Positions 1 to 48,912 of a DNA stretch of 64,000 nt are shown in pieces; positions within the stretch are counted from its first letter, which is position 1, and each line of letters opens with the position of its first letter. The stretch lies in NCBI GenBank assembly GCA_934096715.1, contig CAKOMQ010000002.1, positions 24,132 to 88,131 on the forward strand. The letters are read 5' to 3'. The position numbers and the translations under genes were made by a program. Under the pieces are notes generated by a model. That model ran no database searches. It was not told the origin of the DNA and saw only the letters and a list, made by a program, of their open reading frames with translations. Source of the DNA: an uncultured Bacilli bacterium. Its GTDB lineage: Bacteria > Bacillota_I > Bacilli_A > RF39 > UBA660.

Positions 1-399
1 ATCTGAGTCTGAATTATCTGTAATTTCATTGGTTACTGTAGCTGTTACCTTATAATTATAAGTACAATCTAGTGCTTCATCTCCTTCTGGTAAACTTGCT
101 GTTGCTAATGTGTAATTTGGATTAGTAGTTAGTGCTAGTCCACTCTCGTTTTCATTAGCATAATAAGTCTTTCCTGCATTTGCTTGACTCATTAAATTTG
201 CATCTAAATTTAGATATAACTTAGATGTTTTTGTTTGCATTGTTGGATTTCCTAAGTTGTTTGCTTTACCTGTTACCTTAGCCCCTGTCTTATCACTAGT
301 TGCATTTATACTAAAGTATGCATATGTTCCACCAATTAATAGTAATAATGCAAAAGTGAATGCTACAACTATAAGTTGTTTTTTGTTCATGTTTTTCAT
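1..399 (-). CDS. Secreted or membrane-anchored protein, 5' part only (gene runs off the window). The N-terminal signal anchor MKNMNKKQLIVVAFTFALLLLIGGTYAYFS is paralogous to the N-terminus of the 761-aa protein in its in-frame (ON) form.
   Basis: Minus-strand ATG at 397-399 preceded by RBS AAAGGATAGG. Open frame to the window edge. Lys-rich n-region plus hydrophobic core. Confidence 0.6.
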   Translation of the reverse strand, partial: MKNMNKKQLIVVAFTFALLLLIGGTYAYFSINATSDKTGAKVTGKANNLGNPTMQTKTSKLYLNLDANLMSQANAGKTYYANENESGLALTTNPNYTLATASLPEGDEALDCTYNYKVTATVTNEITDNSDSD

Positions 400-478
400 A
401 ATAACCTATCCTTTTCTAAATAAAAAAGAGAAGTATTTTACTTCCCATAAACTTACATTCAGACTCATTTTTTCAACT

Positions 479-488
479 CCCCCCCCCC
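479..488 (-). repeat. Homopolymeric tract (C10 on + strand, G10 on the gene strand) about 80 nt upstream of the start of the 1..399 gene. It sits inside a ~40-bp block shared with position 35745.
   Basis: 10 consecutive C in a ~25% GC genome. Flanks (CTTCAGAATTGAGAAAAACCTACTG10) nearly identical to the 35745 locus. Confidence 0.85.
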
Positions 489-575
489 AGTAGGTTTTTC
501 TCAATTCTGAAGGGGAATTTTATAACTTATCAGTATAAACTTTTGGGTCATAAAATTCATGTTTTTTGTTGATTC

Positions 576-616
576 GCGAATTAAAATGTACGTTATAGTT
601 GCGAATTAAAATGTAC
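576..616. promoter_or_regulatory. 16-bp direct repeat GCGAATTAAAATGTAC, two copies (576-591 and 601-616, period 25 bp), upstream of the G-tract of the 1..399 gene.
   Basis: Exact 16/16 match read directly. GC-containing motif in AT-rich intergenic DNA. Confidence 0.5.
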
Positions 617-724
617 AAATTATATTTACATAATCAACAATTTCATCTCTTTTATTATCAAGATAATCATATCATTTTTTTAGTATATTGACAATACCAA
701 AAGTATTATTTTTAAAAAAGTTAA

Positions 725-8189: not shown

Positions 8190-9233
8190 ATGGATGGAAT
8201 TGGAAAGAATTTAAAAAGAATACGTCTTCTTAAAAATCTATCTTTAAAAGAAGCCGGTAATTTATTAAATATGAGTCCTACCGCTATTCAAAAGTACGAA
8301 AAGGGAGAAATTATACCCGACTCAAAAAAAACAATTGAATTTGCTAATGCTTATAAAGTAGACATAATAGACATTTTAAAAATATACAGCGCACCAAAAA
8401 TGAGTTTTAGTTCATTTAGAAAAAGAAAAAGATTAAGTGGTCAAAAATTAGAATTATTAGAAAGTCTAATTGAAAATGAAGTAAGTAAATATTTGGAAGT
8501 AATAGAATTAAACAACATTAATTATCACAAAGTATGTTTAAAAAAATATAATTGCAATTCATTATTAGATAGTGAAAATGCTGCTTTAGAATTTCGTAAA
8601 TACATTAATATTTCTCCTAAGCAACCTATATCTGATTTAATAAGCATTTTGGAAAATCTAGGAATATTAATTATTCAAATTAAAAATATAGACAATAAAT
8701 TTAACGACTTTGATGGATTAAGTGAAATAGTAAATAAAATACCCGTAATCGTTCTTTTAGATGATATCAAAGATGGCGCCAGACAAAGATTTACAATTGC
8801 TCATGAACTTGGACATTTAATTTTAAATATAGAAGATAACTCTTTAAATGAAGAAAAATTATGCGACCGATTTGCAAGTGCTCTTCTTATGCCAAAAGAC
8901 GCTGTTATAAATGAATTTGGAAATAATCGTAAGAACATTAATTTCTTTGAATTAATAGCGTTCAAAAAAGAATATAAAGTGAGTATTGCCGCTATTAACT
9001 ATAGACTTAAAGACTTAAATATCATATCTTCTTATTTATATAAAAATTTAAGTATTCTAATAAACAAGAAAATTGGTAAAACTGATCCAGATCCAATAAG
9101 TCCTGAAAAATCATATCAATTTAAAAAAATAATATACAAACTAGAAGCAGATGAAATAATATCAATAAATAAAGCTTGCGAATTAATGGGGGTCACATCT
9201 AATGAATACAGAGAAGAAAATTATAATAACTGA
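8190..9233 (+). CDS. XRE-family HTH domain fused to an ImmA/IrrE-type (COG2856-like) HExxH zinc metallopeptidase domain
   Basis: N-terminal HTH (LKNLSLKEAGNLLNMSPTAIQKYEKG) and C-terminal HEXXH (IAHELGHLILN). ATG 8190 with RBS AAGGAG 9 nt upstream (the ORF track used an upstream TTG). Confidence 0.75.
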   Translation: MDGIGKNLKRIRLLKNLSLKEAGNLLNMSPTAIQKYEKGEIIPDSKKTIEFANAYKVDIIDILKIYSAPKMSFSSFRKRKRLSGQKLELLESLIENEVSKYLEVIELNNINYHKVCLKKYNCNSLLDSENAALEFRKYINISPKQPISDLISILENLGILIIQIKNIDNKFNDFDGLSEIVNKIPVIVLLDDIKDGARQRFTIAHELGHLILNIEDNSLNEEKLCDRFASALLMPKDAVINEFGNNRKNINFFELIAFKKEYKVSIAAINYRLKDLNIISSYLYKNLSILINKKIGKTDPDPISPEKSYQFKKIIYKLEADEIISINKACELMGVTSNEYREENYNN

Positions 9234-33310: not shown

Positions 33311-35596
33311 TTATTCTACCAAAATGTAGGGATTATCATAACTACCATTTCCAGATTTAACAATAACATCACTTGTTAAATAAAATACCGGACGAAAAGC
33401 AACATTGCTATTAGTGAAATCGACACTTTCTAAATTACCTGATGCATTAATTGCCCAAGAACTAAATCCACCAATATTATGATCAGCACCTAATACAATC
33501 ATAGTCCATTCTGTATTAATAATGTTTCCAGAATTTTTATAATCTGTATTAGAAGGTGATAACCAACTATTTACCAAAGAATTAGAATTAATTGGAGCTG
33601 TTAAGTCTGCTTCAGCAGAAAACACATAATCACTTGCATACATCAATCCTATTTTAGCTTGATATGTTTCATATGCAGTTGGAGAACATGGAATCGAGGC
33701 ACTAGCATTAGAATAACAATAATCAGAACCAATATTATTTTCAGTTAAATAAATACCAATCAAAGGAGATACGGTAAAATCGGGTCCACCACCCATGTTG
33801 CCATAAGTACTTACACTATTCCATGTCCAATTTTCTATTTTATTTAACCATATTGTATCTTGTAAATAACTAAATTTGGTGCTTGTAAGAAAATATTTTC
33901 CATTTAATCCTTGATAAATTTCACTATAATTAAACAAGGTATCTTCATCACTAGAATTGAATGAAATTGAACCTAACTGAGAAAATTTTATAAGTTTAAC
34001 ATGGTATGTTCCACTCGAATCAGGAAAAACTCCAATTACTCGATACAGATATTGCTGATAATTTGTCTTACATGTTGCTTGATCAGTTGTTCCGAAACAT
34101 ACAAAATTAGAAACCGAAGCATCTGCCCCAACAGCACGATACCCATCATTTATTCCCAATCCAGAGTTTTCTAACAAATTTAAATATTTACCGGAATTAA
34201 TTAAATAATCATTAAAATATTTTTCTGTCTCATATGAAATAGAAGAATGTATAATAAATCCAAGGTCATCAATAACATGTACATAATATAGACCATCCGA
34301 ATTCATAGTATAATTAATTGAATTAGATGTTATACTTTTCCATGAACATCCACTTATACTAAGTTTGTTATTAATACAATACTTTGTTAATGCTCCTTTT
34401 CCTTTTGTAAAATTAGCAGTTAAAACATTTTTATTTTTTGATAAAGATATTTTTAAAGACGACTCATCACTATTAGAACTATCAATTATTAAAAATGGAT
34501 TTTCTAAAGAACCATCTCCAATTCCACCAGCAACATTACTTTTTAAATAAAAGACAGGTCTAACACTTTCAGTATTAGTATAATAATTATATCCAATAGC
34601 ACCATCACTACGTACATCCCACGAATAATATTTGCTACTCCATAAATCATGATTTGCAATAGTCCATTCGTTATTACTATCATCATTATTGCCTAAATGA
34701 ATCCAACCTGTTTTTAATGTTATTTTACTAGGACCAGTTGACATAGACAATGCAGAAGAACCTAATGATAGTGCATAATCACTCATATATAGTAATCCAA
34801 TCTTTGCTACAGGATTTGTCCATGTTCCACCGCTACAATTAATTACAGTACTATTTATATTCATGCATAATTTATCAGAACCGTTTTTATGCATTTCATT
34901 CAAATACACGCCTTTTGGAGAACTACTAGTATATGAAGGATTACTTGATGTATTAATTCTAGTTTGAGTATTAACTGCACTCCATGTCCAATTCTCTATT
35001 TTATCACTCCACATAGCATTTTGCAGATAATTATAGGATGTATTTGTTAAAAAATAACTTCCATTTAAACCTTTATACAAATCACTATTTTCCCAGTTAG
35101 TTTTTGAATTTGTTGAATTCCACTCATATCTTCCTATAGATTTATATTTAATTAATTTAACATGGTTATCTCCATTTTCATCTGCAAACACTCCGATTAT
35201 TCTAAACATATATTTATCTTGTTTTGCTATACATTCCGATTTATCTGTTGTACCGAAACAAATAAAGTTATTTGGATTTGTCGATTCATCCACTGCACCA
35301 CTTCCAACATAACGATATCCATCGCCTACCAAATTACTTTGATACAATTCTCCCATGGTTATTAATTTATCACTAAGTAATTGCTCTTTATATTTATCAA
35401 AATATAAATAACACATACTTGTTTCTGATACTTTAACTGTAGCTTTCTTTTTATCTTGATCATATAAAAGAGAATCTTCTATTTGTTTACCATTTGAAGA
35501 CATACATCCTGATTTAGTTTGATTATAAAAATATTCATAACCAGGAAAAGTAGAATTAGTACTTTCTTGATAATTACCATTTGAATCTTCTATCAT
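33311..35596 (-). CDS. Large (761 aa as annotated) Asn/Ser/Thr-rich surface-protein body made of two homologous halves. It is currently separated from its signal-anchor coding segment (35667..35807) by a +1 frame offset at the G10 tract.
   Basis: Internal duplication (YRYVGSGAVDES..FICFGTTDKSEC..HVKLIKYKS..KIENWTWSAV versus YRAVGADASVSN..FVCFGTTDQATC..HVKLIKFSQ..KIENWTWNSV). Each half ends RPVFYL.S.V...G.GS..NP[FY]. ATG 35596 has no RBS and no signal peptide. Confidence 0.7.
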   Translation of the reverse strand: MIEDSNGNYQESTNSTFPGYEYFYNQTKSGCMSSNGKQIEDSLLYDQDKKKATVKVSETSMCYLYFDKYKEQLLSDKLITMGELYQSNLVGDGYRYVGSGAVDESTNPNNFICFGTTDKSECIAKQDKYMFRIIGVFADENGDNHVKLIKYKSIGRYEWNSTNSKTNWENSDLYKGLNGSYFLTNTSYNYLQNAMWSDKIENWTWSAVNTQTRINTSSNPSYTSSSPKGVYLNEMHKNGSDKLCMNINSTVINCSGGTWTNPVAKIGLLYMSDYALSLGSSALSMSTGPSKITLKTGWIHLGNNDDSNNEWTIANHDLWSSKYYSWDVRSDGAIGYNYYTNTESVRPVFYLKSNVAGGIGDGSLENPFLIIDSSNSDESSLKISLSKNKNVLTANFTKGKGALTKYCINNKLSISGCSWKSITSNSINYTMNSDGLYYVHVIDDLGFIIHSSISYETEKYFNDYLINSGKYLNLLENSGLGINDGYRAVGADASVSNFVCFGTTDQATCKTNYQQYLYRVIGVFPDSSGTYHVKLIKFSQLGSISFNSSDEDTLFNYSEIYQGLNGKYFLTSTKFSYLQDTIWLNKIENWTWNSVSTYGNMGGGPDFTVSPLIGIYLTENNIGSDYCYSNASASIPCSPTAYETYQAKIGLMYASDYVFSAEADLTAPINSNSLVNSWLSPSNTDYKNSGNIINTEWTMIVLGADHNIGGFSSWAINASGNLESVDFTNSNVAFRPVFYLTSDVIVKSGNGSYDNPYILVE

Positions 35597-35666
35597 AACA
35601 GCAAATAAATCACTACTAGATGTAGACGCACCAAAAATATATTTATCTAAATTTTTATTATTATAA

Positions 35667-35807
35667 GATATATAAGCACCAATTATTAATAATAATTCTA
35701 TTAAAGTAAGTGCAATAATTAAAGTTCTTTTGTGTTGTTTCTCGCCCCCCCCCCAGTAGGCTTTTTAGCTTCTGGAAGGTTGCTAATAAATTAGCATTTC
35801 TTTTCAT
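35667..35807 (-). CDS. 5' leader ORF (46 codons) of the surface-protein gene: MKRNANLLATFQKLKSLLGGG... With 10 G it terminates early. With 9 or 12 G it reads MKRNANLLATFQKLKSLLGGGEKQHKRTLIIALTLIELLLIIGAYISYNN... straight into the 761-aa frame.
   Basis: Manual translation of the minus strand. Upstream ATG (35807) to the ATG at 35596 is 211 nt, which is 1 mod 3. RBS-like GAAAGTGAG upstream. -35 TTGAAA, 17 nt, -10 TATCAT upstream. Confidence 0.65.
35745..35754 (-). repeat. Homopolymeric G10 tract (C10 on + strand) inside the 5' coding region of the surface-protein gene. Candidate slipped-strand phase-variation switch.
   Basis: 10 consecutive C/G in a ~25% GC genome. Reading-frame analysis as above. 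Flanks conserved with the 479-488 locus. Confidence 0.85.
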
Positions 35808-35848
35808 GATTTCGGGGTCTCACTTTCTATTTTTATCTAAAAAAATGA

Positions 35849-35866
35849 TACTACAAATGTGTAGTA
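35849..35866. promoter_or_regulatory. 7-bp inverted repeat TACTACA-N4-TGTAGTA in the spacer of the putative promoter (-35 TTGAAA, -10 TATCAT on the minus strand) of the surface-protein gene. Candidate operator.
   Basis: Read directly from sequence. Confidence 0.4.
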
Positions 35867-35869
35867 TTT

Positions 35870-36604
35870 TCAAGTAGATGTTGTTAACTTTTTTAAAAAA
35901 TCCTTGCTTTTTAAATATAACCCTGTATAGTCTTCATAATAACAAGATAAGAATCTATTAATTTGATCTACTAACTTAGAATCTATTTTTAATGTAGATA
36001 TACTTTTAATATCTACTAAATAATACATATTTAATAGTTTTATTATTCTTAAGTCTAATAATTCTTCTCCCCTATAACAATCTATACATACTAGACCACC
36101 ACGTTCTAAAGATAAAGTTACTATATTATTCTTTTTATTACATACATTACAACTTTCTAAGTTTAATCCAACTCCTAAATAATCTAAATATTTAACTTCT
36201 ATTATATTAGTAATTATTAAAGGATCTAAATTATCATCTATTTTAATTAAAGCATTAATTAAATCTTCATATATATTTATATCATTAGATTGTTTTAATA
36301 CTTGATAAGTAAGTTCTAATAAATAAGAAGCATAACTTATTTTTAATATATCATTCTTTATATTAACAAAAGGATTAATTATATCAACACTAGAAAGAAG
36401 AGAAAGTTTATTCTCTTTATAATAAATATTAAACATACCATATGTAAGTTTCATAGTAGATGCTCTTAACTTAGACTTCATACTTTTAGCACCCTTACAC
36501 ATAACTCCTATAACACCATGTTCTTTAGTTATTATATTTATTATCTTACTACTTTCTCCATATGGAGTTTCTTTTATTATTAATCCTTCTACTACTTCTA
36601 TCAT
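35870..36604 (-). CDS. recO: DNA repair protein RecO
   Basis: N-terminal OB-fold sequence MIEVVEGLIIKETPYGESSKII. Position after era. Confidence 0.8.
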   Translation of the reverse strand: MIEVVEGLIIKETPYGESSKIINIITKEHGVIGVMCKGAKSMKSKLRASTMKLTYGMFNIYYKENKLSLLSSVDIINPFVNIKNDILKISYASYLLELTYQVLKQSNDINIYEDLINALIKIDDNLDPLIITNIIEVKYLDYLGVGLNLESCNVCNKKNNIVTLSLERGGLVCIDCYRGEELLDLRIIKLLNMYYLVDIKSISTLKIDSKLVDQINRFLSCYYEDYTGLYLKSKDFLKKLTTST

Positions 36605-47904: not shown

Positions 47905-48000
47905 TTAAATCACCATAGTTTCTATCAAGAATTATACTATACTTGACAAATTTTCTCAATAGATATATAATAATTGAACCTTAAGGGGGGTAAAATAAAA

Positions 48001-48912
48001 ATGAAAGTTGAAAAAATTTGTGGTAATTGTGAAAAGATTAACATGAAAAGAAAAAAAACTAATTTTTATGGTATTCCAACATATGAGTGTATTCAAGATT
48101 GTAAATACCATAAATTAGACGAATCTGGTTGTAGAGATCATAGATTTGCCAAAGCAGGATGGACAAGAACTGGATTTTGGATTATAACTGCAGTTGCAAA
48201 AATATTAGAATTAGATTCTGATAGTAAAGATATAAAAATGCTTTTTGACCTACTATTTGAATATCGTACTACTGGCGATAATAATAAAGATACATTATTG
48301 GATGATTATGATCAAAGTGGTAGATTAGTAGCAGAAAATCTATTAAAAGCAGAAAATAAAGAAGAATATGCAACTCAAATTTATAATTTTTACTTTATTC
48401 CTATCATATTATTAATTAGTGATAATAAAAAGGAAGAAGCATTAAAAGAATTCTTTAGAATGGCTGAAGAATTAAAAGAAACATTTAACATAAAAAGTAA
48501 TGTTAATTTAATAAAGGAAGGAGAAAATATTACAATGGGAAATAATGAATTACTTAAAATAAATTCTATACTAGATATTGATAACACTGAAGATTTTAAT
48601 ATTTTATTCAACTATATTAAAAATAGCACTGATGATATTAAAGCATTATATGTTGAAATATGTGATGCCTTAAAAGGTTTATTAGATAATCAAACAACAG
48701 AAGAAAATAAAGTAGCTATACTAAGAAAATATTATAATAGTTCAATTATAATAGCTATTCAAGATGCTAAAAATCCTAAAAGTGATCATTCATCAATCAA
48801 AAACATATTAGGTACAATGCTATTAAGAATTAATTGTGAATTCAATAGTTATCGTACACCTGATGTTACTCGTAAAAGAGTACCACTAGATATAAAAGCA
48901 AGTTCACGTTAA
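48001..48912 (+). CDS. Hypothetical protein with Cys-rich N-terminus (CGNCEK...ECIQDCKYH...GCRDH)
   Basis: Perfect consensus promoter TTGACA-17-TATAAT (47944-47972). RBS AAGGGGGG. ATG 48001. Confidence 0.5.
   Translation: MKVEKICGNCEKINMKRKKTNFYGIPTYECIQDCKYHKLDESGCRDHRFAKAGWTRTGFWIITAVAKILELDSDSKDIKMLFDLLFEYRTTGDNNKDTLLDDYDQSGRLVAENLLKAENKEEYATQIYNFYFIPIILLISDNKKEEALKEFFRMAEELKETFNIKSNVNLIKEGENITMGNNELLKINSILDIDNTEDFNILFNYIKNSTDDIKALYVEICDALKGLLDNQTTEENKVAILRKYYNSSIIIAIQDAKNPKSDHSSIKNILGTMLLRINCEFNSYRTPDVTRKRVPLDIKASSR

Follow-up and report, generated by a model that had tools for sequence, protein, structure and literature searches.

A conserved leader cassette with a variable G tract upstream of surface-protein genes in uncultured gut Bacilli: a possible graded expression switch

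Background

Poly-G contingency loci are textbook material for a few Gram-negative pathogens and for the mycoplasmas, and to our knowledge are essentially undescribed in uncultured gut Bacilli. Homopolymer switches situated in a promoter spacer include those of porA and opc in Neisseria meningitidis and of vlp in Mycoplasma hyorhinis. In the Firmicutes, phase variation of the surface protein gene cwpV of Clostridioides difficile is exerted in the leader, where an intrinsic terminator is made or broken. There are also forms of leader control that have no repeat tract but resemble in part what we describe below: in pyrBI-type attenuation a short ORF runs over an intrinsic terminator, and in Shine-Dalgarno (SD) sequestering hairpins a strand resembling an anti-SD sequence masks a purine-rich SD. 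In Moraxella catarrhalis the uspA1 tract lies downstream of the transcription start site, in the 5' UTR.

The uspA1 tract is a non-coding poly(G) upstream of the adhesin ORF and sets the mRNA level in graded one-G steps, G9 being low and G10 high in two strains, while in another G8-10 are low and G11-12 high (PMC7302503). In the intragenic poly-G/C contingency loci, as in Neisseria hmbR/hpuAB, Campylobacter jejuni and Haemophilus, slippage in a G run near the 5' end of a gene for a surface protein switches the reading frame ON or OFF (PMC3786947, PMC8355987).

The window and its two G tracts

The whole stretch of DNA that was analysed, which we refer to as the window, is a 64-kb segment of a bacterial chromosome with 25.3% G+C. 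Almost all of its genes are on the minus strand, the plus strand being strongly asymmetric (C 10409 vs G 5788), and those identified include Era, RecO, NusA, IF-2, SufU and M16 peptidases. The majority of window genes have a G-rich SD. There are only two G/C runs of at least 7 in the 64 kb, both C10 on the plus strand, at 479-488 (locus 1) and 35745-35754 (locus 2), and each is preceded by CCTACT on the gene strand. CCTACTG8 occurs exactly twice in the window, with no match in 100 dinucleotide shuffles. The same motif gave more than 120 matches in JGI metagenome contigs, all of them unrelated and mostly in contigs of high G+C, and a scan of viral contigs for the cassette motif described below found none. 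The only other run of at least 6 in the window is a G6 at 47985-47990, which stands 10 nt before an ATG at 48001 and looks like the SD element of the gene starting there. The features of the two loci are given in Table 1.

Table 1. Positions in the window of the features of locus 1 and locus 2
Feature	Positions	Strand	Basis or remark
5' part (133 codons) of the gene for a ~520-aa secreted/anchored protein (main gene of locus 1)	1..399	-	cut by window edge
Ribosome-binding site of main gene, AAAAGGATAGG	404..414	-	sequence
Leader sORF, MSLNVSLWEVKYFSFLFRKG	406..468	-	sequence reading; ATG 468-466 to TAG 408-406
Terminator-like hairpin, GGGAAGU/ACUUCUC (446-428), then TTTTTTATTT (427-418)	418..446	-	terminator scan
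Hairpin P2: pyrimidine tract UUCCCCUUC (517-509), CAG (509-507), loop, CUG (490-488), G run	475..520	-	MFE fold
G10 homopolymer, putative hypermutable core of locus 1	479..488	-	C10 on + strand
Broken upstream ORF, MNFMTQKFILISYKIPLQN then stop	501..560	-	ATG 560-558 to TGA 503-501
Two exact 16-bp repeats, GTACATTTTAATTCGC on - strand, 25 nt apart	576..616	-	25-bp tandem duplication (567-616)
Probable promoter, TTGTCA-17-(TGa)TATGAT	666..694	-	promoter scan and conservation
Locus-2 gene, ATG 35807-35805	33311..35807	-	out of frame at G10
Locus-2 G10 tract, in 5' coding region	35745..35754	-	
Locus-2 promoter-like site, TTGAAA-17-TATCAT	35845..35873	-	

The original prediction, made from the letters of the window, was of a second homologous G-tract block ahead of a paralogous secreted-protein gene. 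This is borne out, and the C10 (gene-strand G10) of locus 1 is present. The flanks of the two tracts had been called nearly identical. The CCTACT-G10 block is shared and the flanks read as quoted, but the description was overstated, as the match is 21 of 31 columns in the 30 nt adjoining the run and 43 of 71 in the ~65 nt adjoining it. Only 1 of 500 shuffles scored as high, and the formal alignment that had been proposed thus gives significant homology with a match that is only moderate. With the intermediate copy in contig L003 the match to the locus-2 flank rises to 25 of 31, and 0 of 500 shuffles were as good. We regard the similarity of the two pre-tract blocks as moderate but significant, and as bridged by intermediate copies.

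Locus 2

In the frame from the ATG at 35807 locus 2 reads MKRNANLLATFQKLKSLLGGG. At G10 this frame meets a stop after 49 codons, while at G9 it leads into an ORF of 810 codons, and the G9 form is the 832-aa protein P0001, 99% identical and found on two contigs. The allele tally was made in contigs with identical RecO, and comprises four G10 (L224, L225, L226 and L228, the window also being G10), two G9 (L001, L002) and one G8 (L227). Since the gene is in frame at G9 and out of frame at G10, with natural alleles from G8 to G10, locus 2 is a conventional frameshift switch of the intragenic type, and its promoter looks normal. Many homologues have N-termini of the form LLGG(G)(G)EKQ, or were called from an internal Met, which corresponds to the OFF form.

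The G8 allele (L227:2345-2375, equivalent to window 35740-35780) has a recombinant flank, CAGTATTTAAAAAGCCTACT-G8-CATGAAACGACAAAAG, with an ATG directly after the run that gives a start of MKRQKRTL, also seen in P0003, P0006 and P0007.

The protein family

The main gene of locus 1 starts at ATG 399-397 and its product begins MKNMNKKQLIVVAFTFALLLLIGGTYAY. Over the 133 residues that fall in the window there is 96% identity to the N-terminal domain of the P0075 family. The signal region resembles the SipW-dependent type (TIGR04088), a resemblance only, as the score of 15.8 bits (E = 0.012) is under the cutoff of 19. Across the ~520-aa family the N-terminal ~215 residues are 85-93% conserved over more than 200 clusters.

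The N-termini of the locus-1 and locus-2 proteins had been thought paralogous, and for this we find no support (BLASTP E = 3.7 over the 133 residues of gene 1..399). The two are related at the other end. In the locus-2 protein a signal anchor is combined with a ~300-aa domain that is present twice (window 34487-35365 and 33320-34204), and this domain is the C-terminal domain of the full-length orthologues of locus 1 (59% identity, E = 3e-122). Its relatives in species-representative genomes number at least 517, with many to a genome, and were recovered by a rescan with the C-terminal-domain alignment; a scan of the species genomes with the N-terminal domain had given 243 pattern matches, of which none was confirmed. 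These relatives all belong to MAGs of uncultured "Bacilli/Tenericutes/Mycoplasma sp." from the gut of humans, goat, rabbit and chicken, and close relatives carry sporulation genes. The protein family comprises hundreds of 90%-identity clusters. The small family of G-tract-controlled surface proteins that had been suggested is thus real, and much larger than guessed.

With regard to the function of the C-terminal domain, searches of PDB sequences and Pfam gave nothing significant, the one Pfam match being a weak one to DUF6273. An AlphaFold model (pLDDT 76) gave a single fold match, to the Thomasclavelia ramosa IgA peptidase 9qa6, which is borderline (E = 2.8e-5, TMq 0.47). The N-terminal domain of that peptidase is C-type-lectin-like (PMC12237041). 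The family domain may therefore be C-type-lectin-like, which we offer only as a lead, the aligned part of the peptidase not being reported.

The leader cassette

The G tract of locus 1 is part of a ~160-nt 5' leader cassette, which we have in 8 sequence versions from 7 chromosomal contexts, always upstream of ~520-aa family members. The order of elements is a TTGnnn-17-TGaTATGAT promoter, an A/U hairpin, a pyrimidine tract, CAG-loop-CUG, G9 or G10, 30-40 nt, a hairpin with a U run, a AGAAAAGG ribosome-binding site (RBS) and the ATG. AGAAAAGG is conserved in all cassette versions, and the G9-10 run is uninterrupted in all eight. The versions fall into two classes, with those of the window, L003, L084b, L086 and L221b in class A and those of L219/L220 and L221a in class B. 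An nhmmer profile of the cassette run over 1.48 Mb of sequence found the known copies only, with the run intact in each and no degraded copy. The block had originally been described as decayed. That does not fit a cassette conserved in seven contexts with its run intact, but it does hold for the upstream ORF, which is broken in the window copy.

The cassette lies between a predicted extended -10 promoter (694-666 in the window) and the RBS in about half of the sampled ~520-aa members. Five sampled ~520-aa paralogues are without it, and one of these (L217/L218) keeps the same promoter directly before the RBS, so that the cassette looks like an insert of ~110-170 nt in the 5' UTR. At one chromosomal site (DNA methylase, family gene, ThrRS, LexA) there is a class B cassette in one contig (L219:2845-3003) and a class A cassette in another (L221:5675-5829, the L221b version), which suggests that the cassette moves as a unit by recombination.

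The two exact 16-bp copies of GCGAATTAAAATGTAC that had been noted at 576-591 and 601-616 are confirmed, and adjacent to them is a palindrome, ATTCGCGAAT, at 581-572. The 25-bp unit to which they belong is present twice in L221a, once in L221b, and absent in L003, L084b, L086 and L219. It is an optional insert of the leader, and could be an operator or a mere duplication.

Position of the tract

As had been predicted, the tract is outside the main ORF, from which it is separated by 79 nt to the ATG. All frames stop before the main ATG for run lengths of 8-12, and the TAG two codons ahead of that ATG is present, as is the upstream ATG leading to a TGA just before the tract. A frame that spans the tract and is fused to the main ORF was sought in every version for n = 8-12, and there is none.

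The prediction left it open whether the tract was in the leader or the promoter. The leader is the better placement. A conserved extended -10 promoter of the sigma-A type is predicted ~180 nt upstream of the tract, and the promoter scan finds it in three loci. TGaTATGAT followed by TTGATAnTAAAAG is kept in all cassette loci and in the tract-less L217/L218, where it is ~55 nt before the ATG. There is no -35/-10 pair flanking the run at 16-18 nt spacing for lengths 8-12 at locus 1 or in any cassette homologue. With no promoter pair around the run and a conserved promoter well upstream, we infer that the tract is transcribed, within a leader of ~260 nt if the predicted promoter is correct.

A switch in which tract length sets the -35/-10 spacing or the phasing of an activator is thus very improbable for locus 1. 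It deserves mention since exactly this arrangement, TTGACT-cc-G8/9-tatta-TATAAT, is found in distant relatives, where the spacers are 15-16 nt and would be 17 at G10. However the locus-1 run is ~80 nt before the ATG with the terminator-like hairpin between them, and the conserved promoter is upstream of both.

In the goat and rabbit MAGs there are family genes with G8-G9 between TTGACT or TTGACA and TATACT or TATAAT (L007, L009, L010, L011, L020 with two sites, L022, L023, L029 and L038). These tracts are 40-42 nt before the ATG in most loci, and further away or unclear in L023 and L038; a spacing of 16-18 nt at some run length is found in L007, L010, L020, L023 and L038. In rabbit-gut MAGs (L026:2786-2794 and L074:522-530) a G9 is in another conserved context, agcatc-G9-ttattgtaacaccc, which in L026 is 136 nt before an ORF.

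Variation in tract length

There are 18 contigs with an M16 peptidase identical to that of the window, and 10 of them were examined, eight reaching the tract. L207-L210 have G9, while L211, L212, L214 and L216 have G10, as does the window. The 325-nt intergenic region is otherwise the same as that of the window in all eight, save for one SNP in L211. One contig has G9 at locus 1 together with G10 at locus 2, while the window has G10 at both, so the two tracts vary independently. Locus 1 thus has two marks of a contingency locus, a run long enough to slip (about 8 or more) and a repeat number that differs between near-identical sequences. The original prediction was to be given up if there were neither further copies nor length variation; more copies were found and the length varies.

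These tract lengths are those of consensus contigs, and switching within a population is beyond what consensus assemblies can prove. Long G runs are miscounted by Illumina reads and by assemblers, and one has to ask if the G9/G10 difference is an artefact of sequencing or assembly at a homopolymer. We consider this scarcely likely. Both lengths were found inside each assembly pipeline (MEGAHIT, SPAdes Hadza and MERR22 scaffolds), with 9 sequences for locus 1 and 8 for locus 2 and with flanks identical apart from the L211 SNP, and at locus 2 the lengths fit the ON and OFF proteins called in many clusters.

Like the window itself, many contigs of its species break off within the family genes, some 400-700 nt beyond the M16 gene, so the repeated family breaks assemblies.

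Leader structure and the leader ORFs

In the MFE fold the pyrimidine tract pairs with the G run, with a dG of -15.6 kcal/mol for the window and -23.3 kcal/mol (z -6.1) for L219, and RNAalifold gives the same P2 helix in all 8 versions. Opposite the G's of P2, 5 of 10 pairs vary, and only between C and U. P2 cells are paired in 98.8% of cases, as against 92% in shuffles and 71-85% with the partner slid. The fold of the leader as a whole is unremarkable (z -1.7), and in an Rfam search the best match had E = 0.31, far below the gathering score. On these computed folds and the pattern of variation, we infer that the pyrimidine tract, which resembles an anti-SD sequence, pairs with the G run in the RNA.

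In the leader cassettes, and likewise where the block is coding at locus 2, the stem of P2 (CAG...CUG with class-specific inner pairs) reaches precisely to the 5' edge of the run. On A/T runs in IS elements stem-loops are known to stimulate transcriptional slippage, and a hairpin that abuts the run could in the same way promote slippage or pausing of RNA polymerase, with a G number in the transcript differing from that in the DNA. However rG:dC hybrids resist slippage and no reading frame of locus 1 would make use of the result, and we give this explanation very little credence.

The terminator scan called one site in the window leader, where shuffles predict 0.1, and called this site again in L084. 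The hairpin has a dG of -7.8 kcal/mol (z -3.0) in the window, and those across the versions are weak, at -7 to -11 kcal/mol. No site was called in class B, whose stem has too little G+C for the scan to detect. Among the versions three unrelated stem sequences form the hairpin at this position before the RBS, with both sides changed in two pairs.

Starting between the run and this hairpin the class A versions have a leader sORF of ~20 codons, its ATG 7-10 nt after the G run in all 5, and the arrangement G(n)-(AG)TTGAAAAA-ATGAGT is kept in 5 of 5. In three of the five the sORF passes through the terminator-like hairpin, and its end is 6 nt ahead of the main ATG, or 5 nt in L084b and L221b; that of L003 continues out of frame into the gene and that of L086 stops within the hairpin. 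Class B is without a start codon at a workable distance after the run. The sORF may be translated, with the G run as its SD, in keeping with the G-rich SDs of this genome and the G6 that one gene appears to use.

The computed cost of opening the 3' end of the run depends on its length. For the window it is 7.2 kcal/mol at G9, 5.2 at G10 and 2.3 at G11, and for L084b 4.9, 2.2 and 1.6 kcal/mol respectively. By partition function the cost drops steeply once the run is longer than the pyrimidine tract, and the dependence on length is largely gone when the pyrimidine tract is replaced by A's.

The locus-1 tract is most likely, to judge from these features, a switch or rheostat acting at the level of the leader. 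More specifically we favour, tentatively and at a little short of an even chance, the reading that it is the hypermutable core of a conserved leader cassette that acts as a graded heritable switch through SD exposure, leader-ORF translation and terminator read-through. A change in G number by strand slippage would alter the share of the run that escapes the pyrimidine tract, by a computed step of roughly 2-3 kcal/mol for each G at lengths close to the native one. The freed G run would change translation of the leader ORF, and this would in turn change terminator read-through and the coupled translation of the gene. The outcome would be a graded, heritable switch instead of a frame switch. There are difficulties. 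Most native alleles are on the sequestered side of the computed transition, which counts against this reading, and exposure of the SD leaves class B unexplained, since only class A has a leader ORF whose SD is the G run. The weak terminator hairpins, with that of class B not called by the scan, also weigh against it, as do the unremarkable fold of the whole leader, the lack of a consistent relation between G number and the terminator stem, and the in-frame TAA in the gene of L207 described below. A stricter form, in which the cassette is a molecular-ruler attenuator with a pyrimidine tract of fixed length titrating the G run, so that each slippage step exposes or hides the SD of the leader ORF, we think rather unlikely. 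We know of no simple-sequence-repeat locus that acts by SD masking plus attenuation. Antitermination by pairing of free G's with the 3' arm of the terminator was also considered and rejected, as the equilibrium probability of the terminator stem varied with G number inconsistently between versions.

The ORF upstream of the tract offers another way in which length could act. This ORF would start from ATGAATTTTATG and run through the tract, one frame crossing the terminator (ON) and two stopping after the tract (OFF), with the window locked OFF by its TGA. The codon at this TGA is TGG in L221b and L086 (QNWEKPTGGG), so the window copy carries a TGG-to-TGA change. Reading of TGA as Trp by genetic code 4 was rejected: 13 of 56 long ORFs in the window end in TGA, which is thus a normal stop codon there. 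Stops right after the tract are conserved in two of the three frames, the third being open up to or through the hairpin, and in the versions with an ATG-started ORF intact through the tract (L084b, L086, L219 and L221b only) the observed length picks the longest frame in 3 of 4, for which the chance is about 0.11. Such frame-dependent attenuation would also explain decay of the downstream gene in this lineage. However its start codons have no SD in a genome that uses them, and the ORF is broken or startless in the other four of the eight versions (TGA in the window, a frameshift in L003, no start codon in L220 and L221a). Moreover the frame in which the homologous block is read differs between class A and class B, and there is no conservation of the peptide. 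We consider it distinctly unlikely.

Origin of the cassette and state of the locus-1 gene

The cassette profile also matches the locus-2 block, at profile positions 45-88, which correspond to the hairpin, and on this comparison the hairpin part of the cassette and the 5' coding region of locus 2, the gene of the ~830-aa paralogue, are homologous. The 3' flanks of class B (CAAGAAACAAAC) still resemble the locus-2 codons (CGAGAAACAACAC) for GGG-K/E-K-Q. Given these two resemblances the cassette most likely originated from the 5' end of a gene of the ~830-aa type.

The locus-1 gene may be decaying, or already a pseudogene, in this lineage. L207, the sole contig long enough to show it, has an in-frame TAA following codon 299 (8497-8499, KYKQLI-stop-TTWNSTNA), with the rest of the ~520-codon frame intact, and no intact close orthologue of the locus-1 protein was found at more than 93% identity. 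If locus 1 is decaying, the G9/G10 variation there would be without phenotypic consequence.

Such an origin raises the question of whether the cassette is a neutral relic, a remnant of recombination that left the 5' end of an ~830-aa-type gene before one of the ~520-aa type, where it slips without consequence before a pseudogene. The TAA of L207 and the missing orthologue are in keeping with this, as are the residual codon resemblance of the class B flanks and the broken or startless state of the upstream ORF in half of the versions, and the peptide of that ORF has no third-position bias. Against it, the G9-10 run is unbroken in 8 of 8 versions at 25% G+C despite diverged flanks, the search turned up no degraded cassette, compensatory changes preserve the terminator-like hairpin, the pyrimidine tract varies between C and U only, and the exchange of cassette classes between L219 and L221b indicates maintenance as a unit. 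We think a relic unlikely for these reasons, and retain the graded leader switch as the reading to be preferred.

Comparison with known systems

In this one protein family G tracts are found in three positions: in the transcribed leader, in the promoter spacer and within the 5' coding region. Together with the hundreds of clusters, the several copies per genome and a domain that may be C-type-lectin-like, this suggests that stochastic variation of the surface is under strong selection in these commensals of humans and animals. In practice, metagenome assemblies break at the tracts and at the repeated genes of the family, and gene callers are led to report truncated proteins.

With regard to the systems described at the outset, the intragenic poly-G/C loci are like locus 2, to which the locus-1 block is homologous, but differ from locus 1 in that its tract can be fused to the main ORF at no tested length (n = 8-12). 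The porA/opc and vlp geometry is used by the distant family members in goat and rabbit MAGs and not by locus 1. CwpV is similar in having its switch between promoter and gene, but that switch is a site-specific DNA inversion and not a simple-sequence repeat. The pyrBI-type and SD-sequestering leaders respond to UTP, ligands or temperature, whereas at locus 1 the variable would be the heritable length of the SD.

The closest precedent is uspA1, which like locus 1 has a non-coding G(n) upstream of a surface-protein ORF. It is however in a Gram-negative species and in an unrelated gene family, and is not known to have a pyrimidine-tract hairpin, a leader ORF or a terminator in the leader. At locus 1 an effect of tract length on expression is plausible, as predicted from sequence and computed RNA accessibility. 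On this comparison the locus-1 tract probably belongs to a known general kind of mutation-driven expression switch, in an unusual position, and the leader cassette provides a compact and testable design by which one-base slippage could act without either a reading frame or a promoter spacer.
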